In this document: positions 3,023 to 36,317 of the stretch, one piece after another
Position numbering within the stretch: the stretch's first letter is position 1
Layout of the letters: each line of letters opens with the position of its first letter
Virus record (IMG/VR): IMGVR_UViG_3300033076_000277
Location: 1,656-65,655 of that record
Reading direction: 5' to 3' (one strand)
Source: a virus
Lineage: Duplodnaviria > Caudoviricetes
DNA: 64,000 nucleotides
Translations under genes and position numbers: made by a program
Notes under the pieces: model-generated
What the model saw: the letters and a program-made list of their open reading frames with translations, nothing else
What the model was told of the DNA's origin: nothing
Databases searched by the model: none

Positions 3023-3051
3023 GCCCCGGCCTAACCCCCGGGGCTTTTTTT
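3023..3051 (+). terminator. intrinsic terminator
   Basis: GCCCCGG-loop-CCGGGGC followed by T7. Confidence 0.75.
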
Positions 3052-3241
3052 CGCCACGAGGTTTTTCCAAATTTTTATAAAATTTTTGGCGGCTTAAGTA
3101 TCCAGTGTAGGAATTTAAGTATTTAGTTGAGGGGGTGGGGGTGCTGGGATTTTATACAGTATTGGTTCCTCGGATTTTTTAAAATTTGATTTGCGGTTGT
3201 GGAACAGTGTTCACATGTGCATAGGGACTCCGACAGCCACA

Positions 3242-3311: not shown

Positions 3312-3322
3312 TGTGCTATAAT
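3312..3322 (+). promoter_or_regulatory. early promoter, extended -10
   Basis: TGTG-C-TATAAT, perfect extended -10 consensus, upstream of first + strand gene. Confidence 0.8.
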
Positions 3323-3359: not shown

Positions 3360-3385
3360 GCCTCGCCGATTAGCGAGGCTTTTTT
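3360..3385 (+). terminator. intrinsic terminator in leader of first early gene
   Basis: GCCTCGC-cgatta-GCGAGGC-TTTTTT. Confidence 0.75.
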
Positions 3386-3400
3386 ATTTGGAGCTTTATC

Positions 3401-3769
3401 ATGACTAAGTCATTCAATCGTGTTGCCGTGTTCGCTGTGTTCAATGATGCGGACAAGTCGTCCGCCAGTTTCGCTGAGCGTCTGCTTGCGCTTGGCATCG
3501 GTTCGCGTGCTGACGCTCGCCCTCTTGCAATGGAATGGGCGGCCAAGAAGCATGGCGTTGCGATCAAGCAAGGCCAACGTGGTGCGACACTGCCACGCGA
3601 CTCAGCCGCTGAGCGTGCAATGAACCGCGTGCTTCAGGTGTGCTTCCCAAGCGCTGACCTCAAGTCTGCCAAACGTACAGCCAACAAAGTTGACGCTGTG
3701 GACGCGTTGCTCAAGAAGTACCAAGCACTCACCGCAAGTGAGAAGCGCCGTTTCCTCAAGTCAATCTGA
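3401..3769 (+). CDS. early hypothetical protein
   Basis: 122 aa, SD GGAG in GGAGCTTTATCATG. Confidence 0.8.
   Translation: MTKSFNRVAVFAVFNDADKSSASFAERLLALGIGSRADARPLAMEWAAKKHGVAIKQGQRGATLPRDSAAERAMNRVLQVCFPSADLKSAKRTANKVDAVDALLKKYQALTASEKRRFLKSI
3448..3470 (-). repeat. 23-bp motif copy S0 (inside CDS)
   Basis: - strand reads AACTGGCGGACGACTTGTCCGCA. Confidence 0.8.
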
Positions 3770-3792
3770 TGCGGACAACTTGTCCGCGAGTT
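3770..3792 (-). repeat. 23-bp motif copy S1
   Basis: - strand reads AACTCGCGGACAAGTTGTCCGCA; starts 1 nt after the stop at 3769. Confidence 0.95.
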
Positions 3793-3892
3793 TTTTCCAA
3801 GGCGCGAGGGCGGGGAGCTCTTGCGCTGTTTCATTCCTTGTCAATCCAAAACCAACGCGCCACAAAACGTGGTGCACAACTGGAGATTCATC

Positions 3893-4099
3893 ATGCACAA
3901 ACCAAGCAAGAACAAACACTACGCCTTGTCTCAAATGCGTGAGCTACGCAAAGAGTTCAAAGAGATGGCCGACCAATGGGAGAAAGACCCACGCGCCGTT
4001 ATGCAACGCAAGGCACAGCTACGCGCACAACGTGAGTACGAAGCGATGTCTGAGTGGGAGAACATCAAGCGTGGCTCAACACAACTCCGCTTGCTTTAA
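3893..4099 (+). CDS. early hypothetical protein
   Basis: Start moved to ATG 3893 behind GGAGATTCATCATG; 68 aa. Confidence 0.7.
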   Translation: MHKPSKNKHYALSQMRELRKEFKEMADQWEKDPRAVMQRKAQLRAQREYEAMSEWENIKRGSTQLRLL

Positions 4100-4120
4100 C
4101 TTGCGGACAAACTGTCCGCA
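4098..4120 (+). repeat. 23-bp motif copy S2
   Basis: AACTTGCGGACAAACTGTCCGCA; overlaps stop codon TAA 4097-4099. Confidence 0.95.
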
Positions 4121-4126
4121 TCAATC

Positions 4127-4492
4127 TCTCCACAACGTATTGTGGAGAAGTAGGGTAAAAGTGTTGTTTTTTTGCACATACCCACCACTTGACACAAGTG
4201 GACACCTACACGGGCATCCCGCAACCCGCATGGATGCTAGCGTTCACAGCGTCCACGTCCACAATACCTACATATATAAATACTATTTTCCTATAGATAT
4301 ATATATACATAAGTGCGTGGGTGTGTCTTTTCTTGATGTTTGTTTAAAAGGTTTAAAAGTTCTTGAAAAATGGTGGGTATCGTGGTCAAATAGCACACAA
4401 CACCAGTGTTCATGCGGGTTTCAGGTGGTCATCTTTCTTTGGACCACCCCTGCCGAATGGTGGGCCAGTTACAAAACCAAGTGGGCCAGTTA
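4127..4492. other. candidate replication origin
   Basis: 9-bp IR TCTCCACAA-N4-TTGTGGAGA (4127-4148); inverted 18-mers at 4223-4240 and 4403-4420 around an AT-rich (TA)n core; direct 12-mer GTGGGCCAGTTA at 4460 and 4481. Confidence 0.5.
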
Positions 4493-4515
4493 GCCCCAAA
4501 CTGTAAGGAGAAAGT

Positions 4516-5142
4516 ATGCAATTCAAAATCTGTGCAAAATGCGGGCAACAACATCCACTCGCACATTTCAAGTACCGCGCCACCTACGCGCAGTCAAAAG
4601 CATGGGGTCGAGCAGGCAATGTGCGTATGGAATTGGAATCAAAGCACTGCCGAGCGTGTCGACCCAAGCGCAAACCTGACCGCAAACTTACGGCCAAAGA
4701 GATACACAACAAGGTGCAGACAGGCGACATGAACGAATTCATGGCCAAACACCTGCGAGCAAAGCAAGCGCAGGATGAGCGCAACAAGCAGGCCATGGCC
4801 GCCCGAAAGATGTGGCTCAAGAAGTGGAAGGCTGAACTCAAGGAAGCCCTCGCGCCCATCACAAGGGAGATCACCAGCGCAAGGAAAGCGTGGGAGTATG
4901 CCCATGACAAGGGCTACGTGGACAAGGCCAACTTCTACCAAGAATACGGCGAGCTATTGAGGAAAGAAAAGAACTTGGCTGAGTACGAGCACATGACCAA
5001 CCCACGCCGACCACCATCTTCAAGGTGGGCTGACTACATCGACCAAGACACATTCACCCGCATACGTGAGATGTGGGCAGACCTGCCCCCAGTCTTTCAA
5101 CACTCCCGCGTCCCGCTACTAATTAAATACCGCCCTGAGTAG
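4516..5142 (+). CDS. hypothetical protein with N-terminal CxxC...CxxC Zn finger
   Basis: CAKC and CRAC pairs; SD AGGAG. Confidence 0.8.
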   Translation: MQFKICAKCGQQHPLAHFKYRATYAQSKAWGRAGNVRMELESKHCRACRPKRKPDRKLTAKEIHNKVQTGDMNEFMAKHLRAKQAQDERNKQAMAARKMWLKKWKAELKEALAPITREITSARKAWEYAHDKGYVDKANFYQEYGELLRKEKNLAEYEHMTNPRRPPSSRWADYIDQDTFTRIREMWADLPPVFQHSRVPLLIKYRPE

Positions 5143-5147
5143 GGCAT

Positions 5148-5170
5148 AACTCGCGGACAACTTGTCCGCA
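5148..5170 (+). repeat. 23-bp motif copy S3
   Basis: AACTCGCGGACAACTTGTCCGCA between stop 5142 and RBS at 5179. Confidence 0.95.
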
Positions 5171-5190
5171 TAACACCAAGGAGAAAGCAA

Positions 5191-5487
5191 ATGAAAGTCA
5201 TTAGAACAACAGAGGGCTTCATGGTAGAGCTACCCAGTGGCGACTACCTGCACGACGAACATGGGGACAACCTGTGGGATACCCGCGCTGAGGCATGGGA
5301 CGTGATCGCCGCAAACACGGCTGAGAAGCTCGACAAGTACCCCACGTACCACGATGTGATCGACGCAGTCATTGCGCAGATCAAGGTCGACATAGCCAAA
5401 GAGGACGAGACAGCCATCGTCGAGTTACTGGCACGCCTGCCACGCAAGGTGTTGCTGTCCTATTTACCCGAGGAGGAGACAACATGA
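5191..5487 (+). CDS. early hypothetical protein
   Basis: 98 aa, strong RBS AGGAGAAAGCAAATG. Confidence 0.8.
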   Translation: MKVIRTTEGFMVELPSGDYLHDEHGDNLWDTRAEAWDVIAANTAEKLDKYPTYHDVIDAVIAQIKVDIAKEDETAIVELLARLPRKVLLSYLPEEETT

Positions 5488-5870
5488 AGAAGATAAACAC
5501 AACAAGCGGCGCACTGCGTGCGGCCAAGCTGTACCTGTTTGATGGACAACAAGATAGAGGACAGCCTTGGGGTTGGAAGGACGGCCGAGTCCAGTTCTCG
5601 TATATCTGCGCCGCCTTAGCTCAGGCGTATGACTGCGGGGAGATCACACGTCGAGCGCTTATACGTGCGCGGGGTGAAGTCATGGCAAGGCTTGCGCCGC
5701 ATACATCCGTGCCTTCGTGGTTGGACGACAACGTGAAAGGGGGCATCAAGGTTTGGTTTCACCGCCAGTACAACAGAAACGAGCGAGCGTTTTGGCAACA
5801 ACAAATGCAGGCGTACCGCTACCGATGGGTGAACGCACTCATTAAAGAATACGAAGCAAAAGGAGATTGA
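5484..5870 (+). CDS. early hypothetical protein
   Basis: 128 aa, GGAGG SD, coupled overlap. Confidence 0.75.
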   Translation: MKKINTTSGALRAAKLYLFDGQQDRGQPWGWKDGRVQFSYICAALAQAYDCGEITRRALIRARGEVMARLAPHTSVPSWLDDNVKGGIKVWFHRQYNRNERAFWQQQMQAYRYRWVNALIKEYEAKGD

Positions 5871-5871
5871 T

Positions 5872-6051
5872 ATGGACTTTGACCCAAGCTTAATCACGGC
5901 CCTCGTCATAGGCTACTTCGCAGGCAAGTGCGCCTACTGGTGGGGATACAGGGACGGCATGCGCGATGCTGTCGACGACCTGCAAGACGCGGCGATGAAA
6001 CTTAAAGAACTAGGGGAGAGAGCTTATGCTGAAGCGAAGCGACATGTTTGA
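5872..6051 (+). CDS. 59-aa hypothetical protein with N-terminal hydrophobic segment
   Basis: Not in ORF track; MDFDPSLITALVIGYFAGKCAYWWGY...; SD AGGAG. Confidence 0.65.
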   Translation: MDFDPSLITALVIGYFAGKCAYWWGYRDGMRDAVDDLQDAAMKLKELGERAYAEAKRHV

Positions 6052-6118
6052 AGCGGTGGCCATTGCCGTGGCCGTCGTTGTTTTAATCCTTGACTTGTTC
6101 TATTGGAGAGGGGGTTAA
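6026..6118 (+). CDS. 30-aa single-TM peptide (MLKRSDMFEAVAIAVAVVVLILDLFYWRGG)
   Basis: Not in ORF track; GGAG upstream; clean TM helix ending DLFYWR. Confidence 0.55.
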   Translation: MLKRSDMFEAVAIAVAVVVLILDLFYWRGG

Positions 6119-6156
6119 CTTATAGAGAACGGTCATTTCTTCTTTTTCGTTTATTC

Positions 6157-6179
6157 AACTCGCGGACAAAACGTCCGCA
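6157..6179 (+). repeat. 23-bp motif copy S4
   Basis: AACTCGCGGACAAAACGTCCGCA, 8 nt before RBS of next gene. Confidence 0.9.
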
Positions 6180-6198
6180 TCTTTTTTGGAGATTTATC

Positions 6199-6636
6199 AT
6201 GGAACAAACTACACAATCCACACCAGACGCAACCATCACAGTCAACACGCCTGCACAGGTTAGCCAACCAACAGCGGCGCTGATGACCACGCTCATGGCG
6301 CTGATCGACAACTACATCCGCGACATCGTGACATCTCAAGTCAACGAGATCCTGACCAACCACCGCACCATGCGAGTTATTGACAGCGGCTTCGATCAAC
6401 GCATCAGAGAGGTAGCCCAAGACCTTATTGATGACGCCATTCAAGAGCACAACAACGACGAGTATCACATCAGTGAAGACGCAGTCAACGACATCGCAAC
6501 AAGCGCGCTAGAAGATCACGACTTCGACAATCAGATCAGTCAAGCAGTCAACGATGCGATCAACGACTTCGACTTCAGCGACGTCATTCAATCAACCATC
6601 AAAGACAACATCACATTCTCAGTCACAGTGGACTAA
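6199..6636 (+). CDS. highly acidic hypothetical protein
   Basis: Start at 6199 behind GGAGATTTATCATG; 27 D/E vs 6 K/R in 145 aa (hand count). Confidence 0.8.
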   Translation: MEQTTQSTPDATITVNTPAQVSQPTAALMTTLMALIDNYIRDIVTSQVNEILTNHRTMRVIDSGFDQRIREVAQDLIDDAIQEHNNDEYHISEDAVNDIATSALEDHDFDNQISQAVNDAINDFDFSDVIQSTIKDNITFSVTVD

Positions 6637-6640
6637 CACC

Positions 6641-7291
6641 ATGTACACATTCGACCAACTCAATCACTACGGCAAAGCTAACGCAATGTCGCGGTACAAC
6701 GACGCGCCCGATGACTGGGCCGACGAGATCATTGCCAATGCCAAACGCGATGGCCCCGCAAGGGGCTTCAATATAGACGAAGTCTCATGGTCTGGTTTTC
6801 ACTCACAAGGTGATGGCGCATCATGGACTGGCAGTATTCACATGCCCACGTTCATCGAGTACCACAACAAACCCGACAGTGAAGACTTCAGCCAATACGT
6901 TGTGCTTGCTGAGCTAATCAAAGATGGGTGGACACAGAAGCTAGTGGCGGTCGACCGCCGAGCGTACTTCTACAACCACAGTGGCACGATGCTCGTTGAC
7001 GATATCCAAGACAACTTCTACAACGCCAGTGAGGACGGCACCACTTGCATAGACGCAGGGATACTCGAAGGCGCAGATGCGTTCCAACTCATTCAATCTA
7101 TCGACGCATACTCCATGCTCAACGAGTTACAAGATTGGATGGAGCAAAAGGCCAGAGACTACGCTACTGATATATACAAAAAACTGCGCGACGAGTACGA
7201 CGCATACACAAGTGAAGAACGCTTCAAAGATATATGCGACATCAACGACTGGCGCTTCGACTACAACGGCTACTTAATTGAACAGGAGTAA
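6641..7291 (+). CDS. conserved phage/plasmid hypothetical protein (SGFxSQGDGA family)
   Basis: YTFDQL...WSGFHSQGDGASWTG...EYDAYTSEE...NDWRF pattern. Confidence 0.75.
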   Translation: MYTFDQLNHYGKANAMSRYNDAPDDWADEIIANAKRDGPARGFNIDEVSWSGFHSQGDGASWTGSIHMPTFIEYHNKPDSEDFSQYVVLAELIKDGWTQKLVAVDRRAYFYNHSGTMLVDDIQDNFYNASEDGTTCIDAGILEGADAFQLIQSIDAYSMLNELQDWMEQKARDYATDIYKKLRDEYDAYTSEERFKDICDINDWRFDYNGYLIEQE

Positions 7292-7294
7292 CAC

Positions 7295-7714
7295 ATGGGA
7301 TACAGATCAGACGTAGCGTATGTAATACGCTTTAAGAACTTCCAAGACAGAGAGGCGCTTGTGTCCCTTATGCTTGCGAAGAATGATCCAGTCATAACGG
7401 AGGCAGTTGAAGAATGTGAGTACGGCTACACAACACAGCCGCTGATTACGTTTCACGCAGAGAGTGTGAAGTGGTACCCCAGTAACCCCTACGTAAAAGC
7501 GCATGGGGCTTTGATAAACAACGCGCACGAGTTGTACGGTGCCGACTACCGATTCGTTGGCGTGGGCGAGGACGGCGCTGAAGAGATTCAGGAAGAAGAC
7601 GACACAGGAGATTTATATGAGTACATAAGCACACGACACATACTTGACATCGACTTCCCGTTGGTACACCTACCCGCCAACGTAACAAAAGCATTAACCA
7701 CAACACAGGAGTAA
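7295..7714 (+). CDS. hypothetical protein (MGYRSDV family)
   Basis: 139 aa, AGGAG SD. Confidence 0.8.
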   Translation: MGYRSDVAYVIRFKNFQDREALVSLMLAKNDPVITEAVEECEYGYTTQPLITFHAESVKWYPSNPYVKAHGALINNAHELYGADYRFVGVGEDGAEEIQEEDDTGDLYEYISTRHILDIDFPLVHLPANVTKALTTTQE

Positions 7715-7720
7715 TTTATC

Positions 7721-8716
7721 ATGCCATACACATGCAGAAACTATGAAGAAGCACAAGCAATCTTTAACTCACGCCCTGCTGTACGCAGTAACAAGTGGGC
7801 ACCAAACGAGCGGCCACTCGAACCCAAGCCACGCGCAGAACACCGCCTCATCCAAGGCGAGACAAGCTATGGCAAGTACTTCGACCTCAAGCTTTACGAG
7901 ACAGTCATGGCGCGGTTCTACGAGCCCAAGGTAGAGGACGGCAAGCGCGTTGAGCGCAGGCTGTACATGGGCCACCCATCACAGACAAGCCGCAAGTTTA
8001 TGTGGGAGACAACGCACTTCAGCGTTGGTATGAACTGGTGCAGAGACGCTAGCGGTGGACGATCAGACGAAAGCATCATCATGCCTATTTACACCAAGCA
8101 CTTTATGCAAGATGAAGATGGCACAAGGTTCAGCCTTGCCGCGTACCTAGTCGATGGCGTGCTCGATACCACACGCTCAAGTCACACACCGCACCACCGA
8201 CTAGTCGCGGACAAAGATGTCCGCAAGCACAAGCAACGTGTTGTGCAGTTGTTCGACCCATACATCACCCTTGCACTGATGCGTATGCCAGAGTTCAAAG
8301 AGAACTGCAAGCTTGACCACAACTTCGGCCACGCGTTCGGCGGTGAGGGGTTTCAGCGACACTACCTGATGGCCATTCGTGAAATGTGGGATGCGTTGCA
8401 GATGGCGGATGTCATGCCCTCAACACCCAGTATCAACACGTTCTTCGAGATGTGTCAGAAAGCATACGATGTCATGGCGTCTAAGCGTGGCTACAACCAG
8501 AAGAACTTCGAGTTCGGACACAGATGGTACACATCCCCCAACGCAAAGATCAGCACAGTCGACGATCTTGAGCGGCCTGTTGAGAGCGACGACTTCAGGC
8601 GTGCCATCATCGACAGGATACAGAGCTACGTTGGTAGCAACAACTTGAGGAAACTGCAAGAGATACGCCAGTTCCCTACCAAGGCAGAGTACCCAGTGAG
8701 TAACATCCATGTATAA
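7721..8716 (+). CDS. hypothetical protein
   Basis: 331 aa, GGAGTAATTTATCATG start. Confidence 0.85.
   Translation: MPYTCRNYEEAQAIFNSRPAVRSNKWAPNERPLEPKPRAEHRLIQGETSYGKYFDLKLYETVMARFYEPKVEDGKRVERRLYMGHPSQTSRKFMWETTHFSVGMNWCRDASGGRSDESIIMPIYTKHFMQDEDGTRFSLAAYLVDGVLDTTRSSHTPHHRLVADKDVRKHKQRVVQLFDPYITLALMRMPEFKENCKLDHNFGHAFGGEGFQRHYLMAIREMWDALQMADVMPSTPSINTFFEMCQKAYDVMASKRGYNQKNFEFGHRWYTSPNAKISTVDDLERPVESDDFRRAIIDRIQSYVGSNNLRKLQEIRQFPTKAEYPVSNIHV
8202..8225 (+). repeat. variant motif copy S5 (1-nt longer spacer, inside CDS)
   Basis: TAGTCGCGGACAAAGATGTCCGCA. Confidence 0.5.
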
Positions 8717-28302: not shown

Positions 28303-28480
28303 GGGCTTCTTTGTACCGGGGCTAGACGTAGAGAAAGTGAGGGAGTTGGGCTTACGTGCCGCGCTCCCTCACCGGATTCATGCTCGTGCGATTGTGGGTA
28401 TCAGGAAGAACCAACTAGGCGTATGGTTTTATCGGAAATTTCCCGCGTCGCATTTGCAAGCCCAATCTTCATCTTCCTGA
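28262..28480 (+). CDS. small hypothetical protein (YPW..L.PGE.FFVP family)
   Basis: 72 aa, last + strand gene. Confidence 0.7.
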   Translation: MEIIYPWAKLKPGEGFFVPGLDVEKVRELGLRAALPHRIHARAIVGIRKNQLGVWFYRKFPASHLQAQSSSS

Positions 28481-31400
28481 TCTCGTCAAGCTGTTGGCGC
28501 TTGGCTTCAGGCGTCATATTTGATGCGGCTACAGCACGCTCGGCTTGGGTCAACATGTTCATGTTTGTCTTAAACGTATTGGCCAACTCTGCCTGCATAT
28601 ACTCGGAACCGCGCTTGGTCAGCAAGGCTTGAGCTTCCTGCACCTTACCTTCTTCCACCAGTTTGGTCACAGTGTTCTTCACTTGCAGAGCCTCGTTCAT
28701 GCGCTCGTACACGGAGTTCACGATGCCGCCTGCGTCGTTGGGTTGGAACACGCCGCCCACGATGGGGTACTCAGACAAGCGTTTGACGGCCTGCTCTGGA
28801 GTCTCTTTGGATGGCACGCCCATACTGATTGCCTGCAAGAAAGCCAAGCCCATCGTTCCTGTATAGCCGCTGACAAGCGCCTCGATCTTGACTGGAGAAA
28901 TCTCCAAGGCACTACCGAGAGCCTTTGCCGCTTCGCTTGTATTGGCGCGGTACTGTTCTTCTGGCAACAGGTTCTTCTCACGTGCAGACAAGATGTCGCG
29001 GCCTGTGTAGAACGACTTGCCGAGCCCCACCTCGATGGCGGGTTTGATCGCCTGAGGGATGCCGTATGAAGAACCGCCGGGGACAGTCTGCAACAAGATT
29101 TGCTTGAACGCTTTGACTGCTTCCTCTCCGCCATGCTCTGTAGTCATGGTGTTGTACAGCGCCTCAGGCAACGCCTTGAAGATGTAGCCGATCTCAAATG
29201 GCACAGGAATCTTGACGGGCTCATCGACACCGGGCAAGCGCACAAACCAACTGCCGTACTTCTGGTCAGGGGTAGCGTTCTTGTAGGCGTCGTCGTCCTC
29301 CATCATTGCGGCGTAAATAATTGAAGCCGCCGCCATCATGCCACCACGCATCAACAACTTCTCACGAATACGCAACTGGTCGTTGAATGGCATCTTGCCG
29401 GACATTGCTTTGTACAACACGTTCAGACCTTGGATCTGTGCGTTGAAGAAAGGAATCAAGGCGTTGGCTACGTGCACGCTTGGGGATGCGCCGCGCTTGT
29501 TAAAGTTCATGGACTCCAGAGACATCAGCGTAGCTTCCATCTCAGACAAGCCTTGCTCAATGTAGCTGTTGTACTGGGCACGACGAGTCAAAGCATCAGC
29601 CTCCATACCCAAAGCTTCAAACTTGCCAAGTGCTTCCATCCATCCGGGTTTACCCTCAGTGATGTCGCGCATGATCTTGGTCAGGTCTTCGCTTGTGCCT
29701 TTGAACTGTTGGCCGCCAGTGATGCCGCGTTTCTCCAAAACGCCTTTAGACGGAGCGCCAATCTCTTTGAGCGCGCCAATCACGGGAGCAAAGTCAGCGC
29801 CGGACATGATCGGTGCGGCCAACGAGTCACGGAACAACTGCTTGGCCATGTACAAGGGGCTGAGCGTCACGGCCTTGCGCAAAGCTTGCGCTGGCATAGA
29901 CATCACGCGGAACAGGAACGGCATCTGTGTGGGGATACCCTCCATGCCCTTAACCAAGATATCAGCAGGCACGCCTGTGTCGAACTCCTTGTTGCCAATC
30001 TTCACCTTCTCTGTAGCGATGATCGCGTAACGGTCATCCCCTTCTACTTTGAATTTGACAACGTCTGGGCCGTCGGCTTTTTTCACCAACGTGGCGGCTT
30101 TCAGGTCGACCAGTTCCATGACTGCGTTCTTGGTTGCGAGGTTGCGCAGGCCCATGTCAGTCAGCATGTTGGTGTTCTGCACCGAGCTGGTCATAAAGTC
30201 TAGGATGGCGGTATCGCCACCGACCAAGCTTTGCAGGTATGGCTGTTCAGCAACACTACCAATACGCACGGGACTTTCGTTGCCGATCACCAACTCGACG
30301 ACACCTTTGCGCTCACGATAGAACGGGATGTAATCGTCCTGCGCTACCAAGCGTTTCACAAGTTCTTTAGACAAAGCGCCTGTGCTGGCTACAAAGTCCA
30401 AAAGGTCGCGGTTGTACTGGTTGTACTCTGTGCGAGCATCATCAAAGATTTTCTTCAGCGCTGGGTTGGTGTCTACCAAAGAGGTGACGTCGTCAAGCAT
30501 TGCCTGTGTCAGAATAGGTTTGCCGTCTGCGTCCGTGCCAAAGTTGAGCGTCTCGATACCCTTGTTGGCGGCACGAATTGCCGCCATGTAGGTGGTAAAC
30601 AACTGGTTAACAGCTTCGCCGTTACCTACGTACTGCTTGGCTTCGTTCAGCTTGCTGACAATGCTCTTCAGGTTAGCGCCGTCAGTGCTCTCCACAATAC
30701 GCTCAGTCTGGCCGTCAGCTCTTGTCTTCTCCACAATACGTGGAGCGCCGTTGGCTACAGACTGCGACACCATGTTCATACGCTGATCGTATGTGCGCAA
30801 GTAGTACATCATCTGAGTACCACGAAGCGGCTCCATGTATTTGGCCAAACGCTCAAAGCCTGCGAAGCGGTCAACAAGCTGTGTCTCAAACGCAAGGCCT
30901 GTTGTGTTGGCCTTGACGGTATCCCACCAAGATTTATCCTTGGCCACAACCTTGTCCATGGTGGCGCGTACGCGGTTGAACTCTTCACCCTTGTACTCAG
31001 CCTTAGCGCGGTACACAAGTCCAGAAGTATCTACGCTACCGCCACGGGCACCTTTGCCGGTCTTCACATAGCGACGTGCGTCAGCAACCAGTTGCTTGAC
31101 TTCGGAGTCGGACACGTTGGCGATGCCAAGCTTGCTCAGGAACCACTGTTTAATTGCAGAGTAAATGCGGCGCAGTGCATTTGCGGCTTGGGAGTTAGCG
31201 TATGGGCCCGTCTCAGCCAGATCAGCCAACACCTCTTCAACAGCCACTTCACGGGAGAGCGCCTTGTTTGCGTCCATCTTGCCTTCAGCGGCGATACGCA
31301 CAGCCTCGTTGCCGTTGTAAATGCTCTGCATGGTAGAGGCGTATGTGTCGCCCAGCATCTCGCGCAAACCAAAGTGACCTGCAATCTCGTGCGCTACGGT

Positions 31401-34400
31401 GAGCGCAACGTCGGTCGTGCCATGCAAGTTGTCGGCAATCAGGTACACCTTCTTTGTCTTGGGGTCGTACAGGCCCGGGGCTTTGCCCTGCATGCTCTCA
31501 GCAACAAGTTGCTTGTAGATACGGATTGGCAAACCTGTCTCGCTCTGGATGACAACGACAGGAGGCACAACCTCCCAGTCTTTACGGACTTCGTCGGCAA
31601 CCTTCTGGACAGCGTCCACAGTCATGCCTTCGCCCTTACCTGTTGTACGGAACAGACCACGCAAGTCGGGCGTCTCTTCACCAAACTCGCCGTACACGCC
31701 TTGTTCACGCTCAGCGGCAAGACCTTCCGACGCGGCTGCAAGAGTTTGTTTGTATCCTGTGCGGAAAGGTTTCTGCGCAGCCAAGGCAACAGTGCTGGCA
31801 ACTGTAGCGGCGCGTTGCTTCTTACGAGGCTTGCCTTCAAACAATACTTCGCGCTGTTGCTCCAAGGACTCAATGTTCTGAATCACGCCAGCTTTTGCAA
31901 GCGCGGCATCGCGTTCTGCTTGGGGCAGAGTCTCGTCTTGTGCCAACTTCTTGAGCGCAGACAATTCATTGGGAAACTCTTCGTAAGCGCCCAGCTCCGT
32001 GATTAGCTCAGCAACCTCTTTGTCGATGCTCTCAGCCTGTGCGTTCTTGATGAGCGTGGCTTGTTCGGCTTCGTATGCGCGGTCGGCTTTGTCTTGATCT
32101 TGCTTACGCAGTCTGTCTGCTTCTAGCTCGGCAGTGTCTTTAAGAGTTTCGGTTACACCTGCCTGACGTTTGACGCCCTTGCCGCCCAACGTGTCTTTCC
32201 AATACTCTTCAAATTTCTGTTGGTCGGACTTGGCAATTTCTTTGAACTCAGTGGCGCGTGTCTCTGCCGCTTGGACAGTTTGCTTCTGCACTTCCAAGTT
32301 CTTCTTGGCCTGACGGTACGCGAACGGATAAGCGTTGGGGTTGTCGAGCACAGTCTCGCCGCGCATGGAGGCCAAGGTAGCTTCCTGCATCTCCAAGTAT
32401 TGACGCTCGTTCTTAACGTTCTTATCAAGCATGGCCTGAATAACGACAGCGGCTCCGTCAAACTCTTCGTGGCGCTCAGTCACCAACTTATCAAGCGCAT
32501 CCTCTTGCTCTTTGATTTTGGCTTTCAGGTCGTCGACGACGCCCTTCTTCTCTTCGTAGCGGAACAACTCGTAGGTGGCCAGCTCTGTGCGGTTTGCACC
32601 TTCCTTCTGTGCCAATACGCCCTCAAAGCGCTTGTTGATTTTGTCCAGCTCTGCCTGCTCTTTGTCGAGCGTCTTCTTGGCAGCCTCTAACTCTTTGGCC
32701 ACATCACGAATCTGCGGGTCAAGCAGTGCCGCACGTGCGGCTTCCATCTCACCGTTTGCTTTGGTGATGGCTTTCTCAACAGCCAGTTGGTACACACCGC
32801 GCTGTTTCTCAACAGCTTGCTCAGAGTCCAGCAACGCTTTCTGCTCAGGAGACATGATGGCAGAGCCGCGCATCACTTCTTTGAGGTACTTGACGGTGTC
32901 ACGCATACCCGCCATGCGCTCGTTCAGCGCCTTAGCAGTGGCCCGGACATTTGCATTTGTGTCCTGCATGAAAGCCAACAGTTGATTGTCAGCATCCTGT
33001 AGGCGGCGTCCTTGTGCCAACAAGTCCATGGCTTCTTTGACTCGCGCTTGGTACTTTGGCAACTCTTTAGCGCGGAAGTCTTTAAGTAAGCGGTCAGCAA
33101 GAATCTTTTCCTGCTCCGTCATGGGCTGGCCCTTGGCGTACTTGTACAGGGTGTCTTTTTCTTCCTGCGTTGTGCCTGCCTCTGGCATACCTGCAAAAAC
33201 CTTGGCCATCTCAGCGTCAGACCAACGGCTTGTGTCTTTCCAGAAGAACTGTGTGTCCTTACGGATGCTGTCCATGCGCTCAGTCAACTGCTCAAGCAAA
33301 CGCAGGCGGTTCTTACGTGTGGCTTCCTTGGCCAGACGCACAGGCTCGGTCTTCTTGAACAACTCTTTTGCGCGGTCGATCGCCGCCCACACAGGCTTGA
33401 TGCGAGGTGAGTTGGCAAAGTTCTTTGGCGTTGCGCGGATATAGCCAAGGTCTTCCTTGATCTCAGGGAACAAAGACTTCTGACCTTCTGGCACAGTCTC
33501 AGTAGCGCGGATGGCATCACGGATCGCTTGAATGTCGACCTGCTTGACGTCGCGGCCTGCGACGATGGCGTCCACCACGGGCTCAACTTTGTCCAAGATG
33601 TCGCGTGTGGCTTTGCCTTCATCCATGATGTCGGCGGCGGCATTGAGTGCGTCGCGTGCTGCTGGGCGCATACCGCCCATCTTGGCCATCTTGTCACGTA
33701 CAAACTCTGTACGGCGGCGCAGTTCTCCACCCAAAGTTGTTGCAGTTTCGCCACGGGCTTCGGCTACTTTCTTAGCCTCTGTCTCTTTAAACTGGCGCTT
33801 CAAAGGGCCGGTCTCCACACGTGTGGCATTGACCTCAGGCTTCTCTAACAGGTTACGCATCGCAGACTTGATACGCTCTTGGAAGTGGGCGATCTCCGCA
33901 GGGCTGATAGCCTGCGTGCCTGCTTTGACCTGACGACGCTCTGTAACCGCAGGGCGCACAATTTTGTCTGCACGCATCTGTGCAGGCTGAACAATCACAT
34001 CCTCAAACTCAGGCTGTGTGGGCTTGGCATTTGAGCGTGCCACCCAGTCATTGACCGCATCGAACATTGTGGACGCGGCTTTGATCGCCTCGTCTTGTGT
34101 GATGGCCGGCTGGCCTGCGGCACGGCGGTGCAGTGCGGCTTCTTGGAGCGCAGAAGAAATCAGTTGGCCACGGACTTGGTTGGCCTTGTTGGTCAGTGAC
34201 TGCTCTGTCGAAGCGGCCATCTCTTTGTTTGTACCGCCAAGGGTCTGCTCTGTGCGCAGTTGCTCGGTGATGTCGCTCAGCTTGGCCATGGCCTCTTGCT
34301 GTGCACGGCGTGCGGCAATCACTTCACGGGCGTAGTCACCGCCTTCTTTGCTGATCTGCTCGATCTTCTCAAGTGCAGTCTTGCCTTTGGCCAGCGCTTC

Positions 34401-36317
34401 CATGGCTGCGGCACGCTCTGGCGCACCGCGTTTACCTTGAGCTGGGATGGCGTAGCGCGCTGTGCGGTAGTCTTGGTCGGCTTTGTCTGCCTCTGCAATC
34501 AAGGAGTCGATGCGCTCTCGAATCTGTGGACCGCGTGGCAGAGGCTTGACTTTCTCACTGACGGCGATGACGGGCTCTTGGCCCAACGCCTTCTCAAACA
34601 TGGGGTCGAGGTAGTCAAAGTTTGGTTCAGCGGTTCTTGCTTGCTCTTCCACATCCTCCTGAGACTCTTTGAACAGTGCCATCTGGTCGGCAGGTTCTGT
34701 AAGTGTCTGGGCTTTGAGCGTCTCTTGGCGCTGTGCAAGCTCTTGCTTGGACGCGGCTTTCTCTTTCTTCTCAATGTCTGCAAGGCGCAACTTGATGCCA
34801 GACAACAAAAGGCTGTTGTCGGAAGCTGTCAAATCAGGCATCTTTGTGCGCGTCTTGACCATCTCCGCAGCCTTTTTGGGGTCCTGCATCATGTAGTCGG
34901 CGATGTCGCCAAGATCAAATACACCCGCGCCACGGGCCGCATCGAACTGTCCTTGGGCGTAATCTTGTACAGACGTGTCGACAGCAGGCGGCGTCTCTTC
35001 AACACCGAACAACTGACCTTTGCCACGGCGCACTGTGGGCTCTGCCGCTTTGGGCGCTTCAACAGGCTTGTACTCGATGCCCATCTGCTGAAGCATGAAG
35101 TCCTCTGTTGGCATTTTGGCCAACGCTTCTTTCTTGGCAATCTCGTCAACTTGCTTTTTAGCGCCGTGATATTCCTCAGCCAGAGGCTTAATCTGCTTGT
35201 CGAGATCCTTCAGTTGTGCGTTAATATCTCTATTGAACGCCCGGTCTGCGTCGGCGGTGGGGGAGTCTTTCTCAATCTTTTTGATCTGCCCGACCAAGTC
35301 CTGCTTTTGCTTGGCCAACTCATCGTACTTTTGTACTACCTCTTGGGCATACTCAGGCGTAGCTTTACGCTCACGCTCGGTCTCTAAACGCTGTGCTTCC
35401 TCAGCACGCAACTGCGCAAGCTCTTCTTGCTGTGGTGTTTTTTCTTTCTTAGCTTCGCCGCGACGCTCCATGTAGCGACCACCGGGGGCAAGTACGCCGC
35501 CAAGAACCGCGCCACCAACAAAGCTGTCAAAGTACTCGTCACGGGCTTTTTCGTCTGCGATGTTGAGACCTGCTTGTAGGCGCTCAAACACCTGCTGGCC
35601 TGCTTCTGTCAGACCTTCTGTGCCCATAGCCTTGCCTGTGGCAAGCGCATAGTCTTTGGCGATCTGTGCAGTGCTTTGTTTTGTAGCTTCAAGCAGCGCC
35701 TTCTCAGGAACTTGTTTACCAGCAGCGGCAAAAATATTGCGGATGCCGGGCAGCATCTTCAAGCTGAGCATGTCCAAGGCGGCTTGCGGTACAGCAGCGG
35801 CAGCGGCGTAACCTAGTTCCGTCTCACCAAGTTTTTTGCCCTCGTCCATCTGACGAGACAAGTTAGAACCAGTGAACTGTGCGGCAGATGCAAGGCCAGC
35901 GGCACCAAGCGCGGCAAGACCTTCGGGGGCCAAGGCACCTGCGGCAATAGGCGCGGCCATGTATGGGACTGACTGCCCCAACAACTCAGAAACTTTGGTG
36001 ATCGGCGCTTCTGTCCAACCTTTCTCGGTTGGCTTGAAGGTTTTCTTTTTGTACTCTTCCTGCTCTTGGATGTACTTCTCGGCCGCAGCTTGGTCCATCA
36101 ACCCACTACGTCCTGCAAGCGCGGCAATGTCGCCTTTAAGCCCGGCTAATCCTGCTTTGGTGGCGGCTACAAACCCGCCTTCTGGTTGAGCTTCTTGGCC
36201 TTTGGAAGCAAAGGCTTCGGGGTACATGCGCTGTGCACGCGCCCAAGCTTCTTGGGGCGACTCGCCCTCTCGAATAGTTACAGATGAACCGTCAGGAAGA
36301 GGGAGGTATTGTGCCAT
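28401..36317 (-). CDS. giant virion/ejection polyvalent protein (zincin-like HExxGH plus C-terminal LPD38-like domain)
   Basis: 2638 aa; long coiled coil; VAHEIAGHFGL...AVEEVLA; C-terminal PFFNAQIQG...PVPFEIG. Confidence 0.85.
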   Translation of the reverse strand: MAQYLPLPDGSSVTIREGESPQEAWARAQRMYPEAFASKGQEAQPEGGFVAATKAGLAGLKGDIAALAGRSGLMDQAAAEKYIQEQEEYKKKTFKPTEKGWTEAPITKVSELLGQSVPYMAAPIAAGALAPEGLAALGAAGLASAAQFTGSNLSRQMDEGKKLGETELGYAAAAAVPQAALDMLSLKMLPGIRNIFAAAGKQVPEKALLEATKQSTAQIAKDYALATGKAMGTEGLTEAGQQVFERLQAGLNIADEKARDEYFDSFVGGAVLGGVLAPGGRYMERRGEAKKEKTPQQEELAQLRAEEAQRLETERERKATPEYAQEVVQKYDELAKQKQDLVGQIKKIEKDSPTADADRAFNRDINAQLKDLDKQIKPLAEEYHGAKKQVDEIAKKEALAKMPTEDFMLQQMGIEYKPVEAPKAAEPTVRRGKGQLFGVEETPPAVDTSVQDYAQGQFDAARGAGVFDLGDIADYMMQDPKKAAEMVKTRTKMPDLTASDNSLLLSGIKLRLADIEKKEKAASKQELAQRQETLKAQTLTEPADQMALFKESQEDVEEQARTAEPNFDYLDPMFEKALGQEPVIAVSEKVKPLPRGPQIRERIDSLIAEADKADQDYRTARYAIPAQGKRGAPERAAAMEALAKGKTALEKIEQISKEGGDYAREVIAARRAQQEAMAKLSDITEQLRTEQTLGGTNKEMAASTEQSLTNKANQVRGQLISSALQEAALHRRAAGQPAITQDEAIKAASTMFDAVNDWVARSNAKPTQPEFEDVIVQPAQMRADKIVRPAVTERRQVKAGTQAISPAEIAHFQERIKSAMRNLLEKPEVNATRVETGPLKRQFKETEAKKVAEARGETATTLGGELRRRTEFVRDKMAKMGGMRPAARDALNAAADIMDEGKATRDILDKVEPVVDAIVAGRDVKQVDIQAIRDAIRATETVPEGQKSLFPEIKEDLGYIRATPKNFANSPRIKPVWAAIDRAKELFKKTEPVRLAKEATRKNRLRLLEQLTERMDSIRKDTQFFWKDTSRWSDAEMAKVFAGMPEAGTTQEEKDTLYKYAKGQPMTEQEKILADRLLKDFRAKELPKYQARVKEAMDLLAQGRRLQDADNQLLAFMQDTNANVRATAKALNERMAGMRDTVKYLKEVMRGSAIMSPEQKALLDSEQAVEKQRGVYQLAVEKAITKANGEMEAARAALLDPQIRDVAKELEAAKKTLDKEQAELDKINKRFEGVLAQKEGANRTELATYELFRYEEKKGVVDDLKAKIKEQEDALDKLVTERHEEFDGAAVVIQAMLDKNVKNERQYLEMQEATLASMRGETVLDNPNAYPFAYRQAKKNLEVQKQTVQAAETRATEFKEIAKSDQQKFEEYWKDTLGGKGVKRQAGVTETLKDTAELEADRLRKQDQDKADRAYEAEQATLIKNAQAESIDKEVAELITELGAYEEFPNELSALKKLAQDETLPQAERDAALAKAGVIQNIESLEQQREVLFEGKPRKKQRAATVASTVALAAQKPFRTGYKQTLAAASEGLAAEREQGVYGEFGEETPDLRGLFRTTGKGEGMTVDAVQKVADEVRKDWEVVPPVVVIQSETGLPIRIYKQLVAESMQGKAPGLYDPKTKKVYLIADNLHGTTDVALTVAHEIAGHFGLREMLGDTYASTMQSIYNGNEAVRIAAEGKMDANKALSREVAVEEVLADLAETGPYANSQAANALRRIYSAIKQWFLSKLGIANVSDSEVKQLVADARRYVKTGKGARGGSVDTSGLVYRAKAEYKGEEFNRVRATMDKVVAKDKSWWDTVKANTTGLAFETQLVDRFAGFERLAKYMEPLRGTQMMYYLRTYDQRMNMVSQSVANGAPRIVEKTRADGQTERIVESTDGANLKSIVSKLNEAKQYVGNGEAVNQLFTTYMAAIRAANKGIETLNFGTDADGKPILTQAMLDDVTSLVDTNPALKKIFDDARTEYNQYNRDLLDFVASTGALSKELVKRLVAQDDYIPFYRERKGVVELVIGNESPVRIGSVAEQPYLQSLVGGDTAILDFMTSSVQNTNMLTDMGLRNLATKNAVMELVDLKAATLVKKADGPDVVKFKVEGDDRYAIIATEKVKIGNKEFDTGVPADILVKGMEGIPTQMPFLFRVMSMPAQALRKAVTLSPLYMAKQLFRDSLAAPIMSGADFAPVIGALKEIGAPSKGVLEKRGITGGQQFKGTSEDLTKIMRDITEGKPGWMEALGKFEALGMEADALTRRAQYNSYIEQGLSEMEATLMSLESMNFNKRGASPSVHVANALIPFFNAQIQGLNVLYKAMSGKMPFNDQLRIREKLLMRGGMMAAASIIYAAMMEDDDAYKNATPDQKYGSWFVRLPGVDEPVKIPVPFEIGYIFKALPEALYNTMTTEHGGEEAVKAFKQILLQTVPGGSSYGIPQAIKPAIEVGLGKSFYTGRDILSAREKNLLPEEQYRANTSEAAKALGSALEISPVKIEALVSGYTGTMGLAFLQAISMGVPSKETPEQAVKRLSEYPIVGGVFQPNDAGGIVNSVYERMNEALQVKNTVTKLVEEGKVQEAQALLTKRGSEYMQAELANTFKTNMNMLTQAERAVAASNMTPEAKRQQLDEIRKMKIGLANATREISDKTIRLVGSS

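Follow-up and report, generated by a model that had tools for sequence, protein, structure and literature searches.

What are the short palindromes that punctuate the first early genes of the virus recorded as IMGVR_UViG_3300033076_000277, and which protein, if any, do they serve? The DNA analysed here, referred to below as the window, is a stretch of 64,000 nucleotides corresponding to bases 1656–65655 of the 65,655-bp record. A search of the window allowing up to one mismatch located exact copies of the dyad GCGGAC-N5-GTCCGC starting at 3449, 3771, 4103, 5153 and 6162; in the shuffle control 0.10 copies were expected on average and none of the 100 shuffles reached five. The full 23-mer AACT-N-GCGGAC-N5-GTCCGCA is present in all five, on the minus strand for S0 and S1 and on the plus strand for S2 to S4. 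They lie in and downstream of the first early gene, here named gene A, as follows:

3401–3769, plus strand: gene A, the first early gene, an open reading frame (ORF) for a 122-aa protein with a net charge of +12 (protein A), the proposed binder of the palindromes
3448–3470, minus strand: S0, inside codons 16–23 of gene A
3770–3792, minus strand: S1, beginning one base past the TGA of gene A
4098–4120, plus strand: S2, overlapping the TAA of ORF 3893–4099 and followed by a conserved 9-bp inverted repeat
5148–5170, plus strand: S3, 5 nt past the TAG of ORF 4516–5142 and 8 nt before AAGGAG, the ribosome-binding site (RBS) of ORF 5191–5487
6157–6179, plus strand: S4, between an intrinsic terminator (~6125–6150) and the GGAG, 8 nt on, of the ORF starting at 6199

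All five sites fall inside 2.8 kb of the 65.6-kb genome, and a fuzzy scan of the whole 65,655 bp with up to four mismatches gave no further credible copy of the 23-mer. A preliminary description of this DNA had placed S0 to S4 at these coordinates and in these two orientations, with S1 to S3 at stop codons, S3 and S4 before RBSs and S0 within coding sequence, and had seen no full copy elsewhere, all of which proved correct. It had also counted a slightly longer variant, S5, as a member of the array, and this had to be given up. The S5 palindrome (8207–8224, with a 6-nt spacer) encodes the conserved peptide VAD(K/T)DVR of ORF 7721–8716 and was found in 25 related loci, some of them from phages with a different palindrome in the array, and we take it to be a coding coincidence.

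Relatives were collected in two ways. A scan of IMG/VR with the 23-mer returned 47 stretches, most with two to six copies, so that these relatives were picked by the motif itself; 70 further loci were fetched through the small-terminase-like (TerS) gene, independently of the motif, and palindromes were then counted de novo. About 110 related IMG/VR loci were found to keep sites at the same positions, namely near the 5′ end of gene A, past its stop, past the next gene and ahead of two later genes. Positional conservation in related genomes had been proposed as a check on the array, and when the early proteins of the window were mapped onto the stretches returned by the motif scan it was seen in about 45 relatives despite early proteins that are only 25–90% identical. 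In these relatives the copies near the 5′ end and right after the stop of gene A are inverted, whereas those downstream of genes B and C and the one between the terminator and gene F are direct. One dominant palindrome family was found per phage in the de novo census, always at these positions, and at least seven types of palindrome occur among the relatives, those other than T1 (the type of the window) being 15–19-bp dyads. The numbered types are:

T1: GCGGAC-N5-GTCCGC
T2: GTGGAG-N4-CTCCAC
T3: GTGGTC-N4-GACCAC
T4: GGGAAC-N5-GTTCCC
T5: GGGGTCA-N3-TGACCCC or CGGGTCA-N3-TGACCCG

The palindrome type was found to change with gene A. Gene A was typed by its N-terminal 85 residues and palindromes were counted from −600 to +4500 around it, and across 61 distinct gene A sequences the table of N-domain type against palindrome type is diagonal:

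A1, 35 distinct genes: 118 T1 palindromes
A2, 10 distinct genes: 43 T2 palindromes and one orphan T1
A3, 3 distinct genes: 13 T3 palindromes
A4, 3 distinct genes: 11 T4 palindromes
A5a, 5 distinct genes: 19 T5 palindromes
A5b, 5 distinct genes: 21 T5 palindromes

In the T2 phage L038, for example, the first 85 residues of the gene A product are unrelated by BLAST to those of the window and only the last 40 match; in the same phage TGTGGAGAATTCTCCACA replaces the GCGGAC dyad at the S1, S2 and S4 positions, with an extra copy close to the gene A promoter on its upstream side. More distant members of the family, of which three were fetched by identity, also lie among palindromes of their own: L118 carries CAGTGAC-N5-GTCACTG three times (in the 5′ untranslated region (UTR), after the stop and after the next gene), L121 and L122 carry GCAGACA-N3/4-TGTCTGC, and L119 has GGGGTCA-N3-TGACCCC right after the gene A stop. 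The preliminary description had held that the motif is a specific recognition site and not a generic hairpin, with which this co-variation agrees, and ORF 3401–3769, the first binder candidate on its list, appears from these comparisons to be the only gene with a sequence type that follows that of the palindrome. It should also be noted that the T4-type relative L098 (IMGVR_UViG_3300017978_000368) is a different sequence, with about 75% DNA identity over conserved parts.

The co-variation is clearest within a close clade whose large terminase (TerL) and TerS proteins are 85–96% and 83–91% identical, respectively. Here the A N-domain of the window occurs in 33 of 33 T1 phages and in none of 21 T2 or T3 phages, while every other early gene shows the same range of identity to the window in T1, T2 and T3. 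Alignments showed the flanks of S1, S2 and S4 to be near-identical across T1, T2 and T3 phages, with the palindrome alone swapped; this is the opposite of what shared crossover points predict, and it argues against the idea that the palindromes serve as recombination sites for cassette shuffling. On quick gene trees, the palindrome type requires at least 12 changes on that of the adjacent TerS gene and 7, 5, 10 and 8 changes on those of B68, C208, F145 and G216, respectively, which lie between or just after the sites. The dispersed sites thus follow gene A and not their own neighbours; without selection for a match between the two, the pattern would be hard to explain.

This result also bears on whether the palindromes could be plain RNA elements (terminators, or stabilisers of 3′ or 5′ ends) with no dedicated protein, their uniformity being due to copying and their association with gene A to linkage. 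Such an origin would suit the stability of the hairpins, as each of them would form an RNA hairpin of about −11 to −12 kcal/mol, and a scan for terminators picks out S1 and S4, each a hairpin with a T-run, S1 reading on the plus strand as a hairpin followed by GAGTTTTTT, much like an intrinsic terminator. It would also suit the location of S0 or its neighbour in or next to gene A, where a segment swap would carry one site along. However, S0, S2 and S3 are without T-runs, the trees of the intervening genes do not follow the palindrome type, and the flanks of the sites differ from one another, leaving no homology for conversion. Moreover, compensatory drift would be expected within a genome, yet the arms are invariant in 129 distinct T1 sites. 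The explanation is therefore considered improbable, the more so in view of the codons used at S0. The codons GCG GAC .. TCC GCN AGT are found in 22 distinct genes with an in-frame site, whereas elsewhere in those genes TCC accounts for only 1 of 151 Ser codons and AGT for 12 of 151. Most of these bases are fixed by the pattern through which the 22 genes were chosen, so that what is telling is not that the codons are invariant but that rare ones are used. Synonymous constraint at S0 had been suggested as a check, and the frozen synonymous positions with their rare codons show, as far as can be judged from the sequences, selection on the exact sequence. In one relative (L031) the equivalent of S0 lies in the 5′ UTR instead of in coding sequence, and another (L046) is without it.

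The census of T1 sites also clarified the form of the site. The one-sided AACT tail described earlier is real, with 114 of 129 distinct sites having a perfect tail on at least one side, but strict asymmetry did not stand, as 8 of the 129 have it on both sides and 7 on neither. On these counts the full site is best described as a dyad of 27 bp in which the outer quarter on one side has usually degenerated. The central loop base, scored in 113 sites, is variable (A 24, C 22, G 28, T 39). Several divergent relatives carry an extra copy 13–15 nt downstream of a TTGTCC-17-TATACT promoter that precedes the AAA and VWA genes, and at this promoter-proximal copy the AACT tail points in either direction, is present on both sides or is missing from both.

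Protein A itself consists of a variable N-terminal domain (approximately residues 1–85), a flexible linker and a conserved C-terminal helix pair, and the other A types have net charges of +5 to +10. Types A1, A5a and A5b align over their full length, and for A2, A3 and A4 the alignment starts midway through the N-domain and continues to the C terminus. A2 and A3 are 50% identical and their palindromes differ at two of six arm positions. The C-terminal tail occurs in two forms which shuffle independently of the palindrome, so that L007 and L047 have an A1 N-domain with a different tail, yet carry T1 sites. Both the small difference between the A2 and A3 dyads and the shuffling of the tail would fit a recognition code. 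Family and profile searches with protein A found no relative in Pfam, PHROG, NCBIfam or the sequences of PDB, and the ESM Atlas returned unnamed viral clusters only (score 0.80); a profile search of 1.84 billion representatives gathered 92 clusters at 50% identity, with lengths of about 80–230 aa and mostly of 120–150 aa. The AlphaFold2 (AF2) model, built from a 75-sequence alignment with a predicted local distance difference test (pLDDT) score of 90, shows helices at residues 7–19, 25–30 and 36–51, a beta hairpin at 56–63 with the GQRG motif of the family, a helix at 69–81, and then a low-confidence linker and two helices. The order helix-helix-helix-beta-hairpin-helix recalls a winged helix, with no significant structural match. 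When two AF2 models of A were searched with Foldseek against PDB and BFVD, and by a VIA wide search, the DNA-binding domains of MarR, ArsR, IscR and LysR recurred among the weak Foldseek hits, none of them significant, and the high-probability matches in BFVD were uncharacterised phage proteins only.

Because relatives with a different version of A carry a different palindrome at the same positions, the palindromes are read here as the sites of A, that is, as DNA operators of a sequence-specific early regulator, some of which would double as terminator stems. We would give this reading a probability of roughly 60%. A dimer of A would bind the GCGGAC-N5-GTCCGC dyad directly, would also contact the AACT that lies outside the dyad on one side or both, and would occupy sites at the start and end of its own gene and in the next early-gene junctions. 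Such occupancy would feed back on the expression of A and on transcription of the early region, by promoter occlusion or as an elongation block. The sites at the start and end of gene A, about 320–510 bp apart, suggest autoregulation, with looping through the C-terminal helices being conceivable, and those at the junctions suggest elongation blocks or occlusion of weak internal promoters. As G+C-rich dyads also form RNA hairpins, S1 and S4 with their following T-runs probably double as terminator stems; terminator function is likely for S1, at whose position a private palindrome with a T-run is found in types T1, T2, T3 and T5b. The simplest outcome would be repression of the early genes once A accumulates. 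Activation through S3 and S4 is unlikely because they lie only about 20–30 nt from start codons, too close for upstream activator sites.

If A acts at these sites, it could do so on DNA or on RNA, and the promoter region of gene A is informative in this respect:

3314–3322, plus strand: extended −10 (TGcTATAAT) of the putative gene A promoter, read from the sequence and conserved in alignments across palindrome types
3360–3385, plus strand: terminator-like leader hairpin between the gene A promoter and the RBS

In T2, T3 and T5b phages the first site lies upstream of this conserved extended −10, or over the −35 region, and the gene A promoter therefore does not transcribe a site so placed. Overall, the promoter-associated sites of relatives either cover the −35 region of the gene A promoter or lie further upstream, at about −44 to −59, and at the TTGTCC-17-TATACT promoter they lie at about +7 to +23. 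The preliminary description had favoured a DNA-level reading, and both this placement and the orientation at the site before the AAA gene, which varies between phages at one homologous position, support it. Two further features favour DNA: the symmetry of the dyad often reaches into the bases that a hairpin would leave as its loop, GGGAACAC-N-GTGTTCCC and TGTGGAGAATTCTCCACA being examples, and S4 lies after the A+T-rich stretch in T1 and before that stretch in T2 and T3.

It is nevertheless possible to imagine A binding nascent hairpins instead and controlling termination or read-through at S1 and S4, or mRNA stability or translation at S3 and S4, in which case it would resemble lambda N with boxB or a phage translational operator. 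Besides the stable folding of all sites, this idea draws on the T-run that follows S1 in most types and S4 in the window, on the punctuation of the early region by terminator-like hairpins, including that of the gene A leader, and on the location of S3 and S4 8 nt upstream of Shine–Dalgarno sequences. All sites of the window lie within the likely early transcript. Protein A also has the general build of the N proteins, which are likewise small, very basic products of a first early gene in which a variable specificity part is joined to a conserved tail. The sites upstream of the gene A −10 do not suit an RNA target, and neither does the AACT tail of T1, which would be presented 5′ of the hairpin in some transcripts and 3′ of it (as AGUU) in others, so that the RNAs would differ. 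Furthermore, among variants with a single mismatch there is no preference for those that would allow G-U pairing on the sense strand, and the symmetry of the would-be loops is likewise at odds with an RNA target. On balance an RNA target is regarded as unlikely, and DNA operators remain the preferred reading.

Three structures near these sites deserve mention in their own right. The gene A leader hairpin is kept in the distant relatives L121 (225–242) and L122 (279–296), where it has different stems and a related loop (CCGATT) and precedes the site and gene A, and it looks like a conserved attenuator. The stems of the terminator at ~6125–6150, upstream of S4, covary between phages (CAGGGAT/ATCCCTG versus AGAGAGAA/TTCTCTCT) around a constant CGGTCA loop. 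Directly after S2, at 4127–4148, lies the 9-bp inverted repeat TCTCCACAA-cgta-TTGTGGAGA, which is conserved in T1, T2 and T3 phages; its half-site TGTGGAGA equals the arm of the putative T2 operator in an everted arrangement. This repeat starts a long A+T-rich non-coding stretch (4127–4492). An ORF spanning S2 and the A+T-rich region (3690–4493, 267 aa) was considered as a gene and rejected as a Cys/His/Ser-rich junk translation.

Several observations weigh against A as a DNA-binding regulator of these sites. The census started from loci picked by the motif, for which the TerS-anchored set corrects in part only. The matching is not absolute, as an orphan T1 site occurs in the T2 phage L038 (at 4143) and two orphan T4-type GGGAAC-N5-GTTCCC sites occur in the A1 phage L047, some 4.9 and 6.3 kb downstream of gene A, the regulator and first five sites of L047 being T1. 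Such orphans are what recent mosaic recombination would produce, and they may be either its relics or signs of a second regulator. In addition, the promoter scan found no recognisable consensus sigma-70 promoter adjoining S2, S3 or S4 in the window, and with S2 and S3 lacking one nearby, promoter occlusion cannot explain every site. The fold of A is without a significant relative, the best PDB match by Foldseek having an E-value of at least 0.4 and the VIA Z-score being at most 5.1. Lastly, every site is a stable RNA hairpin and S1 is terminator-like in most types, so a role at the RNA level is possible.

The wider genome gives the setting in which such a regulator would act. Minus-strand genes at 1–2904 include the large terminase, early and replication genes form a plus-strand block at 3401–28302, and the remainder is a minus-strand structural block including a 2638-aa LPD38 protein. 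The plus-strand block encodes a VWA/AAA pair like gp25/gp24 of N4, as well as a family A DNA polymerase, a helicase and a primase-helicase. Judged by the terminase, with 46–52% identity, its nearest neighbours among deposited phages are the HTVC023P-type pelagiphages and Planktothrix phage Pag-Yong1, and the early-region DNA gave no match to deposited phages. Scans of the genome detected no T7-like RNA polymerase (PF00940) and neither of the two integrase families searched for, tyrosine integrase and serine recombinase. As neither integrase family was found, the phage is probably virulent; it is probably also a podophage and dependent on the host polymerase. A strong plus-strand terminator-like hairpin (3023–3052, GCCCCGG..CCGGGGC followed by T7) was also observed in the 400 bp of non-coding DNA that separate the late block from the divergent early one, with no plus-strand gene upstream.

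The possibility that the palindromes belong to the host, as boxes of a host regulator, or are REP-like repeats moved by a transposase, was also considered. A hairpin with a conserved 4-nt tail is a feature of REP/IS200-type ends, which the sites resemble. However, 596 Gb of bacterial genomes contain the 17-base pattern 68 times, always as a single copy and never clustered, where chance alone would give about 70. Related phages, with presumably similar hosts, use different palindromes, the positions are conserved by descent, and scans of the genes with Pfam or PHROGs showed no transposase, although no dedicated search was made. A host origin is thus the most improbable of the explanations weighed. 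A fork trap (Ter-like) or origin priming signals, Chi-like end protection, pac or cos and parS were set aside without a dedicated test, because other palindrome types are symmetric, orientation varies and the sites track gene A, not replication or packaging genes. The suggestion that the sites load a protective or ejection protein onto the entering DNA found nothing in its favour.

The closest parallel is with the immunity modules of lambdoid phages (cI/Cro; imm lambda, imm434, imm21). In both cases palindromic sites of about 17 bp are paired with a small early protein that has a specificity domain, the recognition part and sites are exchanged together between mosaic relatives and a site lies at the regulator's own gene. 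The features by which a lambdoid-type system would be recognised, namely repeated dyads in a candidate regulated region and a recognition domain that changes together with the sites, appear from the sequences to be present. Unlike those modules, the phage here is probably virulent, there is one regulator rather than a cI/Cro pair, the protein A family is unrelated by sequence, and the sites are spread over ~2.8 kb at gene junctions instead of being clustered at two promoters. The preliminary description had put the array forward as a candidate for an undescribed system, which overstates the case, as the logic is that of a repressor/operator specificity pair; this known logic is found here in a phage in which neither integrase family was detected, and it is the variant that is new.

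Other phage systems share some of these features. The N protein and boxB (nut) sites of lambda are like A and its sites in pairing a small basic product of the first early gene with a hairpin site near the start of that gene. A nut site also follows the first gene of the other early operon, and the specificities of protein and hairpin differ together in lambda, P22 and phi21. Nut sites act as RNA, occur once per operon and need boxA and Nus factors, whereas four to six sites are found per early region here and one of them can lie upstream of the promoter. The polymerase/promoter pairs of the T7 group likewise belong to a lytic lineage in which a protein and sites of ~23 bp diversify together, giving phage-specific expression. 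Their sites are promoters read by the polymerase, in contrast to the dyads of this phage, in which no T7-like polymerase was detected. The stoperators of Cluster A mycobacteriophages (L5 gp71; PMC9283540, PMC6550527), which the preliminary description had invoked, are also present in many copies in short intergenic spaces near stops and starts, and have been proposed to block elongation as well as initiation (PMC9283540, PMC6550527). They offer a fair analogy for the intergenic copies. Stoperators are asymmetric 13-mers, bound by a monomer, distributed genome-wide and oriented with transcription (PMC9283540), whereas the sites here are dyads, with symmetric copies among them, are limited to the early region and have an orientation that does not follow transcription.

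Hairpin promoters of the type read by the virion RNA polymerase of phage N4 (PMC4496689) are similar to the palindromes in having a stem of 5–7 bp and a 3-nt loop and in being confined to an early region at one end of the map. The palindromes could accordingly be DNA-hairpin promoters, with a 7-bp stem and 3-nt loop, for an injected or early phage RNA polymerase, their orientation setting the direction. The sites lie ~20 nt before start codons, a T-run follows the hairpin as in N4 P2 (PMC4496689), and the genome has N4-like VWA and AAA genes as well as a giant protein of virion type:

28401–36317, minus strand: giant virion-type protein of 2638 aa, whose C-terminal 800 residues (including LPD38) are highly conserved

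Its first ~1500 residues are rich in Ala, Glu, Lys and Arg and match coiled-coil entries only, and its more than 550 metagenomic homologues, of 2600–3300 aa, include none that is named. No RNA polymerase was found, either with PF00940 or by comparison of the giant protein with PDB, in which neither the single sequence nor a 30-sequence profile matched the N4 mini-vRNAP or any polymerase, although a very divergent enzyme is possible. The base at the centre of the loop varies, where N4 requires a purine; the palindromes of T2 and T3, being perfectly symmetric, could not specify a direction; the two orientations are found together within a single direction of transcription and orientation varies at one homologous promoter-proximal site; and S0 and S1 would fire antisense into gene A. 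With no polymerase found, a variable loop base and inconsistent orientation, the N4-like reading was rejected as very improbable.

If A is a regulator with operators of its own, the question arises of why its specificity should change so often. Repeated turnover of specificity on near-identical backbones resembles immunity switching and, by analogy, suggests conflict between co-infecting relatives. It is tentatively proposed, as a possibility well short of even odds, that in a virulent lineage A and the palindromes private to it act as an exclusion system similar to immunity. Once a first genome has entered, its A would shut off the early region of latecomers with the same palindrome, or cause mis-termination there, and competition among co-infecting relatives would drive the repeated swapping of the recognition domain of A together with all of its sites. 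In a more radical variant, A would act on the nascent hairpins, site by site, as a termination or antitermination factor with private terminators.

The significance of these findings rests on the co-variation of gene A and palindrome. It points to a likely role for the small phage proteins of an unnamed family, the 92 clusters at 50% identity, which are the product of the first early gene in podophages of a lineage that is widespread in the environment and distantly related to the HTVC023P-type pelagiphages. Nature also appears to have provided here at least seven protein/site pairs, each matched and all on near-identical backgrounds, which may serve as material for deriving a recognition code and for obtaining regulators that do not cross-react. 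If the turnover of specificity does reflect competition between co-infecting lytic phages, then heteroimmunity would extend beyond temperate phages.

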